A stretch of 64,000 nucleotides of DNA, taken from contig JBDRQI010000005.1 in the NCBI GenBank assembly GCA_043826355.1, positions 84,879 through 148,878 on the forward strand, written 5' to 3'. Below are positions 25,399 to 52,644 of this stretch, one piece after another. Under the pieces are notes generated by a model, which did no database searches, was not told the DNA's origin, and saw nothing but the letters and a program-made list of their open reading frames with translations. The stretch's first letter is position 1. Every line of letters starts with the position of its first letter. The position numbers were made by a program, and so were the translations under genes. This DNA comes from Candidatus Omnitrophota bacterium. GTDB taxonomy: Bacteria; Ratteibacteria; UBA8468; MWAK01.

Positions 25399-25473
25399 TC
25401 CGGCGTAGCGCAACGGTAGCGCGGCTGGCTGTTAACCAGTAGGTTGTAGGTTCGAATCCTACCGCCGGAGCCA
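25399..25473 (+). tRNA. tRNA-Asn(GTT)
   Basis: TCCGGCG acceptor stem, CTGTTAA anticodon loop, GGTTCGAATCC T arm, encoded CCA. Confidence 0.96.
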
Positions 25474-25555
25474 CGTAAAATCCGCCTTCGGCGGATCACG
25501 TGGTCCCGTGATGATTCGCAGAATCATTTTACGGGACAATATATCAATTACAAGT

Positions 25556-25831
25556 ATGTATTATGTTTATATTCTGCGTAGCCTGAAAGATAACCGGTTT
25601 TACACCGGTTACACGGAAAACATCCAAAGAAGATTCAAGGAACACAATGCAGGTCAAGAAAAATCCACCAAATATCGCCTGCCTTTTGTCTTGGTCTATT
25701 TTGAAGCCTACACAGATAAACGGGATGCTCTCGGTAGAGAGGAATTCCTGAAAAGCGGTTCAGGTAAGAGATATTTGAAAAAACAACTCAAGAATTATCT
25801 GACTGAAAACGATGGGCTGAATTTAATATAG
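25556..25831 (+). CDS. Stand-alone GIY-YIG nuclease
   Basis: YYVYIL...FYTGYT.N...R..EHN.G...STK.R.P..LVYFE....DAL.RE..LKSG.G. Confidence 0.9.
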   Translation: MYYVYILRSLKDNRFYTGYTENIQRRFKEHNAGQEKSTKYRLPFVLVYFEAYTDKRDALGREEFLKSGSGKRYLKKQLKNYLTENDGLNLI

Positions 25832-25848
25832 TGAAAACCGAGCGGTAC

Positions 25849-25867
25849 CGAATCCTACCTCCGGAGC
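25849..25867 (+). repeat. Duplicated 3' end of tRNA-Asn (att-like)
   Basis: CGAATCCTACCTCCGGAGC vs tRNA 25453-25471 CGAATCCTACCGCCGGAGC (18/19). Confidence 0.8.
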
Positions 25868-29949: not shown

Positions 29950-30217
29950 GTTACCCCCTATTTTAGTCGGAAAATTATAGTATTTGACATACTCCATTTG
30001 CCCATCAAAAAGAAATATTTTAACCTGATTCCCTACTTTACTTACCATCATTTTACTCCGGTACATCTATCGTGTCAATTAAAAAATTAAAAAGCTCCAA
30101 ATTCTTATTCCTAAACACCCTAAAACTCCTGTTTTTAGATCTTACAGTCTTGGATAATTTTGCAAATGCGCCCCATTACCGTGTTGATTTTTAATTGGCG
30201 GGGATATTTGTTCTTTA

Positions 30218-31680
30218 TCATCCAGGCGCCGGACAAAGACCGCGTATCTTTTGCATGATGCTTTTCCAGAGATGTTCATTGATCGTTGCTTCCGCTAAAA
30301 GCAGATAGTAATACCGGGCATGCCTGATAAGCCTGCCGCCCATCTTTATCAGTTTTAACTGTATCGTCCTTAAGGACCAACTCCTTATCTTTTCCGGCAA
30401 GGCCAGCGTCCGGAAAATATTCCCCAGATTATATGCCATGATGAATAGTTTCAGCCGGATTTCGTTCTCCTTAAATCCCTGGCAACTAAGCCTGGTCCAG
30501 TTTAAGGCATATTTTCCTTCTTTTATCTCCGCCGGAGGCGGATCTGCCTCTGGCATGACACTGCTCGCAGGTGCCCCGGTGGTTGTAGAATTTTATTACC
30601 GCCTTATTATTCCATTTGAGACTGGTTACGATGTATCCTATCCTGGGAAACAGTTCTCCCTGATGGTGCTCCATCTTCGCTACTATTCTCCGCTCTTTTT
30701 CCCAGGCGGCAGCACGATACTGGAAACTGACATATTTTACCACCGGTTGCTTTCCGGGTCTGCCCACCGACCGCTTTGCATATGGCGCCACCAACTCTCG
30801 TAACTTCTCATTCTCTTTTATCCGCACCGTATAGTCTATTCCCAGTTCTTCGCATAATTTATACAGACCCGGTATGGCAAAGGCGGCATCTCCCCGTACC
30901 TTTATGTTGATTCCTTTTTCGGCGTAAGACCTCAATATCGGCTCCAGGAATTCCTGCCATCCATCTGCGCTATGCACATTACCCGGCCTTAGTTTTACCT
31001 TGAGACAGTCACCGTACTGGTTGAATACCAATAATGGGTGGTAACACCTTGAAAGAAAATGTCCGTTATAACTTGACCCTTCCTGTTCCCCGTACACCGG
31101 GCTCTCGGAACTGTCTATGTACAAGATTATTTCCTTCATACCTCGTACTGAATCTACCTTTTTTTGTCCATTGCTTCAGTATCTCGTCCAGATTGTTCGG
31201 ATTATCTCCCTCCAGCAATATCTCTTTCTCAAACCTGCCTACGGTTGTTTCTCCGGCGCCGGTCTTTGCCAGGGCGCGATTTCCGATTACCGCTCTCATG
31301 CCAGGGTCTTTCCTCAAGCCTTCAGCATCGTTGGTGTCTTCGTATCCTCCCAGGCGTGAATAGACACTCTGCCGCAGTAATCCCTCCATCTCACGCTGGA
31401 TGTTTTTGCCGTGCCGCTTGTCTTCCAGATATTCCCCGGCGATTTTTGTTAATCCTAATTGTTCGTCCATCTCTCTTATCGCTACCAATCCTCCATCAGA
31501 TGTTACCTGGGTTCCTCTGAATCCGATCTTCAGTTTTTGATTAAAGCCTACCCGGAAATAGCTGTTTTTACTTTCACCCATTAGGTATCTCCTTTTTTTC
31601 GTCTGTTTCCAGCTATATTATAGACGCAAGAAAGGTCAAATTGTCCAGAGGAAATTCTGTCTTTATATGGGGAATGCGGG
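30218..31680 (-). mobile_element. IS1380-family transposase pseudogene in three pieces
   Basis: TSDGGL, GYEDTNDA..LR.DP, YNGHF..CYHPL, LRPGN, RGDAAF, YN.RGTCEQ, IKEGK, LIKMGGR; probable IRL CCCGCATTCCCCATATAA at 31663-31680. Confidence 0.88.
30528..30558 (-). repeat. 31-bp double-hairpin micro-element inserted in the IS1380 transposase
   Basis: TCATGCCAGAGGCAGATCCGCCTCCGGCGGA; removal restores CAG TGG ATA (EQWIKEGK). Confidence 0.85.
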
Positions 31681-50808: not shown

Positions 50809-52644
50809 TCATCGTTCACCGTTCTTAAACGCGTTGGTGATGGGCAGGCGCCAATCCTTGCCAAAAGCACGACTGGTTATCTTGACACCGGGCGGCGCCT
50901 GGCGTCTTTTATATTCGTTCCGATCAACCAGCGCAATTGCCTTTCGCACCGTACCCATCTTGAAACCGCTGCCGGTTATCTCCGCCGGTGAAAGATTTTC
51001 CTCAATATAAGCGGCCAGAATCGGGTCCAGAATTTCATAATCCGGAAGCGTATCTACGTCTTTCTGGTTTGGCCGCAGTTCTGCGGAAGGCGGCCGTTTT
51101 ATGGTCCGTTCCGGTATAACCGGCTTCAGTTGGTTCCGGTATGCGGCCAACCGGTAGACCAGGGTTTTGGGAATATCCTTAAGGACCGCAAACCCGCCGG
51201 CCATATCTCCGTAAAGGGTACAGTAACCGGTGGCGATTTCACTCTTGTTTCCCGTAGTGAGGACCAGGTAGCCGAACTTGTTGGAAAAAGCCATAATGAT
51301 ATTGCCCCGAATACGCGCCTGGATATTTTCTTCGGTTATATCCGGTTTTACGCCGGTAAAACTATTCTTGAGAGTCTTCAGGTAGGCGTTAAAAACTTCC
51401 TTTATGGAAATTACGTGAAATTCAATCTCTAAATTGTTTGCCAGTTTTTGGGCGTCTATCCGGCTCATCTCCGCGGAAAACCGGCTGGGCATAAAGAGGC
51501 CGACCACCCGTTCTTTGCCCAGACTATCAACCGCGATAGCCGCAGTAAGAGCTGAGTCAATCCCGCCGGAGAGCCCGATAATTGCCTTTTTAAATCCGTT
51601 TTTATCCACGTAATCCCTGGTTCCAACAATCAGGGCCTGATATATCTCGGCCTCATCCGAAAGCCGCGGTTCAATTCGCGGTTTAATTACCGGAGGTTTG
51701 GACTCCCGCTTACTGCGCGCGGGAATGACATACGTTTTTGCAACGAAAGAATCGCAGGGGGCGGATTCATCCGCCCCGCGGGCCCCGTATAGGCGGCTGT
51801 TGCCTTTTACGGGGCGGGCGCGCCATGTCATGCCTGAGGCAGACCCGCCTCTCTCGCCTGAGGCGAGTGCGCCTCCGGTGCAAGCGGGAACGGCGCCCCG
51901 ACAAACGCTCTCCGGGTTAATATCTACAATAAGCAGGTCTTCGTCAAAAGATTTCGCCCTCGCCAAAACTTTACCTTCCGGGTTAAAGACCACGCTTTGA
52001 CCGTCAAAGACCAGTTCGTCCTGGCCGCCGACCAGATTAACATAAACCAGAAATGCTTTATACTCTACGGCCCGGTTGGATAGCATCTGCTCCCTGTATT
52101 CCACCTTGCCGAGCTGGTACGGCGAAGCCGAAATATTGATAACACATTGACTACCAGCCGCAACCTGCTGAAACGCCGGTCCGGCCGGATGCCAGATATC
52201 TTCGCAGATATTAACTCCAAAACAAAAACTTCCCAGGGAAAAAACCTTGTTTTCACGTCCGGATTCAAAATAACGCTTTTCGTCAAAAACACTGTAATTG
52301 GGGAGAAGATGTTTATGGTAAACCGCCCGGACCTTTCCGCCGGCAATGATTGCAGCCGCATTATAAAGGTTATTTTTAGACCCCTTAAGGTCAATGAACC
52401 CCAGAATCGCAGTTATTCCGACTGTTTTTTTCTCAATCTCCGCAAGACCTTTAAGATTAGCCTTTATAAAACTGGTCTTAAAGAGAAGGTCTTCCGGCGG
52501 GTAGCCGGTCAGGGCCATTTCCGGAAAAACAACCGTATCCACTCCGAATTTCCGGGCACGCTTTATACAATCGAAAATGCGAACCGCATTACCGGGGATG
52601 TCTCCCACCGTAACGTTTATCTGGGCCAGGCCGATTCTTACCAT
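50809..52644 (-). CDS. nadE: Glutamine-dependent NAD+ synthetase
   Basis: FPE..GYPPEDL, NICEDIW, LSGGIDSA, ENIQARIRG, TGNKSE. Confidence 0.95.
   Translation of the reverse strand: MVRIGLAQINVTVGDIPGNAVRIFDCIKRARKFGVDTVVFPEMALTGYPPEDLLFKTSFIKANLKGLAEIEKKTVGITAILGFIDLKGSKNNLYNAAAIIAGGKVRAVYHKHLLPNYSVFDEKRYFESGRENKVFSLGSFCFGVNICEDIWHPAGPAFQQVAAGSQCVINISASPYQLGKVEYREQMLSNRAVEYKAFLVYVNLVGGQDELVFDGQSVVFNPEGKVLARAKSFDEDLLIVDINPESVCRGAVPACTGGALASGERGGSASGMTWRARPVKGNSRLYGARGADESAPCDSFVAKTYVIPARSKRESKPPVIKPRIEPRLSDEAEIYQALIVGTRDYVDKNGFKKAIIGLSGGIDSALTAAIAVDSLGKERVVGLFMPSRFSAEMSRIDAQKLANNLEIEFHVISIKEVFNAYLKTLKNSFTGVKPDITEENIQARIRGNIIMAFSNKFGYLVLTTGNKSEIATGYCTLYGDMAGGFAVLKDIPKTLVYRLAAYRNQLKPVIPERTIKRPPSAELRPNQKDVDTLPDYEILDPILAAYIEENLSPAEITGSGFKMGTVRKAIALVDRNEYKRRQAPPGVKITSRAFGKDWRLPITNAFKNGER
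51699..51905. repeat. Stack of nested palindromic elements in the NadE interdomain linker
   Basis: Hairpins at 51700-51730, 51758-51777, 51782-51815 and 51828-51889 (with nested 51853-51883). Confidence 0.8.

Follow-up and report, generated by a model that had tools for sequence, protein, structure and literature searches.

Within a 64,000-nucleotide stretch of a Candidatus Omnitrophota genome (contig JBDRQI010000005.1; referred to here as the window), a 31-bp sequence lies inside the broken transposase gene of an insertion sequence, and the locus raises the question of whether these few bases are themselves a mobile element and, if so, what moves them. The relevant features are as follows.

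30024 to 31680, minus strand: IS1380-family insertion sequence, with approximate ends placed at imperfect inverted repeats near its termini
31066 to 31581, 30486 to 31139 and 30218 to 30556, minus strand: three IS1380 transposase fragments, all matching PF13701 and the middle one also NF033539
30528 to 30558, minus strand: 31-bp element of two 15-bp GCC-NNN-GGC units in inverted order, the first with a bulged A, at the site TG^GA without duplication
31159 to 31165, minus strand: A-run with one extra A, a second, independent frameshift (+1), seen as a 1-base gap against the homologue L008
31119 to 31121, minus strand: an Asp of the conserved LDIDS motif replaced by Tyr, the homologues L007, L008 and L010 keeping Asp

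The host element was assigned to IS1380 by its DDE_Tnp_1_4/NF033539 transposase, the middle fragment of which scores 172.7 bits against NF033539 (cut-off 180), an intact homologue scoring 375 bits. Re-reading of the sequence placed the 31 bp between CAG TG and G ATA AAA, and alignment with IS1380 homologues from two other genomes (L008 and L009, with 73% and 83% nucleotide identity respectively) opened a single clean 31-base gap at the insert, the empty site reading CAGTG^GATAAA and translating as EQWIKEGK. These data clearly show that the initial annotation was right in describing a precise 31-bp insertion that splits a Trp codon, as the homologues with which the IS copy was compared do not contain the 31 bp. 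The gap cannot slide in either direction in these alignments, and hence there is no target duplication at this site. In addition, contigs of the runs X2, X3 and X7 end at 30527 and 30559 and show the letters of the empty site, and a contig of run X1, which holds the window and is possibly its source, covers 30000–31494 with 0 differences at a depth of 47 and carries the insert, which argues against an assembly artefact. The IS1380 homologue L007, in genome G003, ends before the insert site. No intact copy of the window IS1380 was found in its own genome, where two related copies run into contig ends short of the site; the IS1380 left ends L002 and L003, at the ends of contigs C35 and C3, are 91–92% identical to the window copy and are cut by these contig ends.

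It had also been proposed that excision rejoins two open reading frame fragments. Removal of the 31 bp does restore EQWIKEGK, but it rejoins just two of the three transposase fragments and the third stays apart, the extra A lying upstream of the insert and the frame stopping at 171 aa with or without it; some X2, X3 and X7 contigs are without this extra A. The insert falls two codons past the Glu of the transposase Y-x2-R-x3-E-x6-K motif, which we take to be the IS4-type catalytic signature. The element's own ATG opens the C-terminal fragment (30218–30556, a 112-aa frame) in frame, reading MPEADPPPAE..., and element-borne starts of a similar kind occur at other loci, for example L017, L029 and L081. 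That the element can inactivate other mobile DNA is only trivially true: this IS copy holds a second frameshift, and a Pfam search of 150 frames beside 79 element loci (150 of the 153 chosen, the two longest per locus) found housekeeping genes and neither a transposase nor a GIY-YIG domain. A targeted inactivation of insertion sequences was rejected, a role as an anti-transposon device is not supported, and the insertion is likely to be an incidental landing that was retained because the IS copy is dispensable.

The unit from which the element is built is a 15-bp hairpin, consisting of three variable bases, GCC-NNN-GGC and the complement of the three bases, and it is modular, occurring singly or as inverted pairs, of which the 31-mer is one. 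As had been annotated, the 31-mer as read forms a tandem of two hairpins (−9.1 kcal/mol, z −2.4), and the opposite strand prefers a single long hairpin (−10.2 kcal/mol, z −3.8); the hairpins extend to the element ends, and the element ends in a purine. The stems covary. At the GAYCC/GGCGGR stem pair, 83 copies have T-A (75), C-G (7) or a mismatch (1), Y therefore tracking R in 82 of the 83, and among 37 distinct monomers the two inner positions of the outer stem pair in 31 and 27 cases against 17.6 and 10.2 when shuffled, with four pair types, although these monomers are mutually related and the counts consequently give no probability. The outermost stem pair forms in 25 of the 37, which is not significantly above the 20.5 of shuffled monomers, and the loops of inverted pairs are complementary in 35 of 73 cases against 26.9 shuffled. 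Module sizes are heterogeneous (15, 22, 30, 31 and 44 bp). In the genome itself there are 12 pair loci at no more than one mismatch and, within REP loops, six shortened forms of 22 bp and one form of 30 bp; single units also occur. A GTAG tag is absent from the 31-mer and from the 37 listed monomers, and the G of an apparent GTCA tag belongs to the target DNA. Tandem runs of units or pairs at L104, L115 and L325 have purine^T/C junctions like those inside a pair, as would be expected of repeated insertion beside an earlier copy or of a rolling-circle product. A search of the window with Rfam returned four tRNAs only.

A second copy in the window lies in nadE, where the following features were resolved.

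51828 to 51888, plus strand (gene on the minus strand): second copy, a 31-bp core and a nested 30-bp pair making 61 bp, in a GTAG-type REP at ATG^AAY
51853 to 51882, plus strand: nested 30-bp pair, CTCGCC-TGA-GGCGAG and TGCGCC-TCC-GGTGCA, which follows directly on the second hairpin's loop, its probable ends taken from the family pattern
51782 to 51819, plus strand: separate 38-bp gain, a 36-bp hairpin repeat with a 2-bp GC duplication, from alignment with G003

The initial annotation had called this copy near-identical to the first; it does start at 51828 after TG, but it is 61 bp long, a second pair of related hairpins (30 bp) being nested in its loop. In the relatives G003 and G001 the same GTAG-type REP of nadE is empty (ATG^AAT), and the gains of 61 and 38 bp add 99 bp to the gene in frame. 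An in-frame path to this state exists, +31 presumably having come with +2 and then +30 and +36. In the window's genus, repeats of the GTCA and GTAG types form a mosaic, read in frame, that makes up the interdomain linker of nadE (51700–51900), where G008 carries another repeat; a relative of the 36-bp repeat lies at C1:56771. Seven further REP-loop inserts occupy ATG^AAT/AAC-type sites, the genome also containing 10 and 13 REP copies that match the empty form exactly, and orientation is fixed within the GTAG REP loops. The 22-bp form, in which the first hairpin has collapsed, occupies the ATG^AAT loop of GTAG REPs in a single orientation at C35:19672, C35:30433, C36:30328, C36:61551, C36:80792 and C37:8902, and is also present in such a loop in G003 (L156). 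The genome holds many REP-like families, and hairpin inserts of 30–35 bp from other families are nested in REPs at C12:21418, C36:60234, C5:135629, C26:3454, C36:43969, C22:17602, C20:27011 and elsewhere. Independent pairs of empty and filled sites in the IS, nadE, the REP loops and the duplicated tRNA halves described below bear out the proposal that the sequence is a mobile unit, that the IS was already in place when it came and that its insertion duplicates nothing, and we conclude that it is very probably a gene-less micro-element mobile at the level of DNA.

The target preference of the family was assessed from the matches listed, among which there were 119 distinct loci, 79 of them with a simple element and full flanks and 58 remaining after dereplication. 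Position −1 is a purine in 48 of the 58 sites (G in 37, A in 11) and position +2 is A in 51 (background 0.28), giving a weak consensus, purine^N-A, that is present in 44 and to which the weakly structured IS site (−4.3 kcal/mol) conforms. A fixed 5′ TG motif, which had been suggested from the IS and nadE copies, was not borne out by the collected flanks, TG preceding only 7 of the 58 sites (9 of 79 before dereplication). Flank repeats of length 0 and 1 were found at 57 and 20 of the 79 sites, compared with 55 and 20 in shuffled pairings, and a 9-nt flanking repeat at two (L036 and L109, of one tandem repeat family) may be either a duplication or an older tandem repeat. A TG target, target duplication and group II intron ends were all rejected. 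The cut lies inside a predicted hairpin loop at 51% of the 79 sites, compared with 30% of 521 distal controls and 16–22% when the position is shifted by 6–8 nt, and by inspection most host sites are other repeats. Copies are mostly intergenic, identical element sequences occur in unrelated flanks, and a hand count at 55 loci gave no orientation bias relative to neighbouring genes (27 same, 24 opposite and 4 ambiguous).

The 22-base core matches at least 121 loci. Among the matches listed, all 80 titled carriers are metagenome bins, of about ten phyla, with the labels Patescibacteria, Planctomycetota, Lentisphaerae/Verrucomicrobiota, Omnitrophota, Cloacimonadota, Elusimicrobia, WOR-1, Edwardsbacteria, Delta- and Gammaproteobacteria and Solirubrobacterales. 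The spread is patchy. A search of 40 further genomes of the window's phylum, each at least 85% complete, gave no member of the 31-mer subfamily, and the general pair pattern is present in 6 of 65 genomes of the phylum, four of them in the window's genus, and in none of the other 59. Some distant bins are rich in the pattern (45 + 43 = 88 matches on both strands in G066, and 19 + 22 in G069), copy number being strongly lineage-specific. In viral contigs the exact 22-base core gave no match; a looser pair pattern gave at least 121, of which 10 among those listed are true pairs that may lie in host flanks and the rest look like chance. No record in a plasmid collection covered 80% of the 31-mer, and among the articles searched no description of this hairpin family was found. 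That the family is an artefact of assembly or binning, or a locally generated hairpin, is a reading to which we give almost no credence: mis-binning could inflate the phylum breadth, the named carriers among the matches listed all being metagenome bins, but nadE stays in frame across its inserts, identical sequences sit in unrelated flanks beside housekeeping genes, and a reversed control pattern gave 0 matches in the 65 genomes, so that, together with the contig depth at the IS, this reading is largely refuted.

With regard to the enzyme, the initial annotation had considered an HUH/IS605-like or nick-primed insertion. A Y1 HUH enzyme (RAYT/TnpA-REP) might move the element, as a tagless miniature REPIN, by single-strand cleavage and strand transfer, and the genome encodes two candidates.

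C1:46422: Y1 gene
C6:62797: Y1 gene

The first (L016, C1:46422–46751) is RAYT-like and lies, with GTAG REPs on either side, between a gene resembling acylphosphatase and its neighbour. The cut is preceded by a purine in the target and likewise where the element ends on its 3′ side, which fits a cleavage site read on the 5′ side. HUH chemistry yields precise joins without duplication, the inverted pair can adopt either a one-hairpin or a two-hairpin fold, and many targets are GTAG REP loops. TnpA-REP also performs strand transfer in vitro, and BIME circles have been proposed (PMC3333891 and PMC8266576). However, the IS605-like anatomy suggested initially was not recovered, there being neither a guide sequence 5′ of the hairpin nor a fixed 4–5-nt target; a GTAG guide is absent; the junctions differ from the C^T or CA sites given for TnpA-REP (PMC8266576); the hairpin lies within 300 nt of only 1 of 31 Y1 loci of the phylum (loops of up to 12 nt allowed); and Y1 genes occur in 38 of the 65 genomes yet in 3 of the 6 carriers, without co-occurrence at the genome level. 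On balance we consider this route rather doubtful. Nick-primed insertion is possible.

A second type of candidate, a small nuclease lodged in a tRNA locus, is also encoded in the window.

25556 to 25831, plus strand: 91-aa GIY-YIG nuclease gene (PF01541) behind tRNA-Asn (25399–25470), candidate partner enzyme
25849 to 25867: degenerate tRNA 3′ end after the GIY-YIG gene
25481 to 25495, plus strand: one 15-bp unit on its own, TCCGCC-TTC-GGCGGA, lying between the tRNA-Asn and nuclease genes

A 76% identical copy of this cassette (25399–25867) in G044 has the unit in the same place with a compensated stem. By the same count as for the Y1 loci, the hairpin adjoins 9 of 17 GIY-YIG loci of the phylum, and around 67 metagenome GIY-YIG genes it is tenfold denser in the adjoining 30.7 kb (16 hairpins) than in 105 kb further off (5), being present at 10 of the 67 loci and at 5 of 15 in high-copy bins. 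On a tree of 91 GIY-YIG proteins, built by a quick method from 84 columns, the hairpin label is clustered (8 changes against 15.8 shuffled), although the hairpin-bearing rows are not one clade; 12 of these 17 rows, outside one large clade, are cassettes in which the unit replaces the anticodon arm of a spare tRNA half or is inserted in it. The monomer that takes the place of the anticodon arm lies 23–54 nt before the nuclease start codon. Spare tRNA halves (Pro, Ala, Glu) with the arm swapped for a GCC hairpin were noted upstream of the GIY-YIG gene at L195, L190, L281, L304, L331, L278, L289 and L290. Duplicated tRNA halves also supply empty/filled evidence at L183 (44 bp), L187 (29 bp), L188 and L326 (30 bp each); the pairs at L188 and L326 lie between anticodon bases 35 and 36 of duplicated tRNA-Gln and tRNA-Glu halves in unrelated genomes, L326 having no nuclease gene nearby, and at L187 the downstream tRNA-Asn copy is broken after the anticodon arm by a sequence resembling the start of an intron or homing element. 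The enrichment is confined to a subset of tRNA-lodged genes, and several observations speak against the nuclease as mover. A GIY-YIG gene lies within 600 bp of none of 121 listed element loci and at 1 of 38 pair loci, and at the genome level no co-occurrence with the window's nuclease was found among the incomplete bins, matches being present in 2 of the 6 pair-carrying genomes of the phylum and in 12 genomes without pairs. Spare tRNA halves gather many unrelated hairpin inserts (L186, L300, L330 and L331), so that the link may merely mark a neutral structured target. GIY-YIG enzymes nick, and we know of none that joins strands, so a host step would be needed. SsnA, a related single-domain GIY-YIG enzyme, cuts single-stranded DNA beside its own hairpin repeat (PMC11893778).

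We tentatively favour a reading in which the gene-less micro-element inserts in single-stranded form at purine^N-A sites and leaves no duplication, the pasting being done by a trans-acting enzyme that would most likely be a small tRNA-lodged GIY-YIG nuclease together with host ligase or polymerase. The element would move as a single-stranded intermediate, landing in DNA that is transiently single-stranded and preferably hairpin-forming; the small nuclease would act at these sites, host ligase or polymerase would complete the join, and nuclease cassettes and REP units may ferry the element between phyla.

The element can also be read in the absence of any dedicated mover, stable mini-hairpin oligonucleotides from degraded foreign or own DNA being captured by break repair or by template switching at stalled forks or nicked hairpins. 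The weak target sequence, the hairpin bias, the heterogeneous modules, the swaps of arm for hairpin in tRNA copies and the lack of an enzyme gene adjoining dispersed copies are as such capture would predict, but exact ends repeated across phyla, a lineage-specific copy number (88 pattern matches in G066, none in 59 genomes of the window's phylum), and the fixed orientation in GTAG REP loops are not, and we regard it as unlikely. The brevity and structure of the element, its insertion without duplication and its self-nesting would also suit an RNA-templated route, i.e. target-primed reverse transcription of a short structured RNA, which is said to have been raised for the small dispersed repeats (SDRs) of cyanobacteria of the Nostocaceae. 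Against this, the genome (86% complete) gave no RVT_1 match, the copies show no orientation bias (27 versus 24) and no larger transcription unit is conserved around them, which makes this route very unlikely. Among the sequencing runs listed as carrying the sequence, none was of RNA. The same genome gave no match to IS110 (PF02371).

Among known systems, SDRs were reportedly described from Nostocaceae by Elhai et al. 2008. Like the present element, they are 20–40 bp, gene-less and precisely inserted, with empty and filled sites, a likeness of general anatomy; SDRs are cited in PMC4390886, PMC5861425, PMC2884548 and PMC3116915. They are reported from Nostocaceae only (PMC5861425), whereas the 31-bp unit varies little among bins labelled as about ten phyla, lacks a fixed target word and consists of a 15-bp module that is also found singly. 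With the REP/REPIN/BIME repeats of RAYT enzymes it shares short GC hairpins, inverted pairs and intragenic copies, some inside other palindromes (PMC3733652, PMC3116915, PMC3333891 and PMC8266576), the lack of duplication that HUH chemistry would give and, with GTAG-REPs and REPINs, an inverted doublet that can fold into a single long hairpin. In contrast with these, it has no GTAG or CGTC tag, its stems are of 6 bp with 3-nt loops and no spacer, it does not accompany Y1 genes, and REPs are its targets. The Ssn nucleases with their NTS/SRM repeats combine a single-domain GIY-YIG gene with an adjacent cognate single-stranded hairpin and dispersed hairpin copies (PMC11893778), an arrangement that the 15-bp hairpin shows at the minority or half of GIY-YIG loci counted above and at none of the 121 listed element loci; Ssn nucleases are not known to insert their repeats. 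However, none of 121 listed element starts matches the SRM form (tag, 8–9-bp stem, 4–5-nt loop), of which the genome has 33 other sites, and the GIY-YIG genes linked to the 15-bp hairpin sit in tRNA loci. The genome's own Ssn-like GIY-YIG gene (L159, C4:112730–112951) is flanked by GTCA-tagged repeats.

IS200/IS605 elements and their gene-less derivatives also have hairpin ends, no terminal inverted repeats, no target duplication and a probable single-stranded route; unlike them, the 31-bp element has no conserved 4–5-nt target and no guide 5′ of its hairpins, which are terminal and not subterminal, and no parent element was found. Rickettsia palindromic elements (PMC3733652) are similarly tolerated in frame in working genes, as in nadE here, but the 31-bp element is much shorter, is not a multiple of three and is mostly intergenic. 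The definition of a MITE by terminal inverted repeats plus target duplication excludes an element without duplication. The 31-bp element thus lacks features by which IS200/IS605 derivatives, GTAG-REPs, SRM repeats and MITEs are defined, and appears closest in behaviour to the Nostocaceae SDRs and to what would be a tagless miniature REPIN.

A wider reading, to which we would give only guarded credit, is that the 15-bp hairpin is itself mobile, and among the smallest mobile units known. Mini GIY-YIG nucleases lodged at tRNAs would recognize it, take it from phylum to phylum and insert it alone, paired or in exchange for other stem-loops, with targets chosen by single-strand shape. If true, this would be transposition by a nuclease plus host repair without a transposase. 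How very small bacterial repeats such as REPs and SDRs spread is an old open question, and the present family, with its exact ends, empty/filled pairs, defined target bias and two candidate enzymes in one genome, makes it testable with short oligonucleotides. The element carries an ATG (reading MPEADPP...), through which spurious or new gene starts can arise, the C-terminal transposase fragment being one example. The presence of almost the same 31-mer in bins labelled as about ten phyla implies that very small pieces of non-coding DNA pass from one phylum to another.
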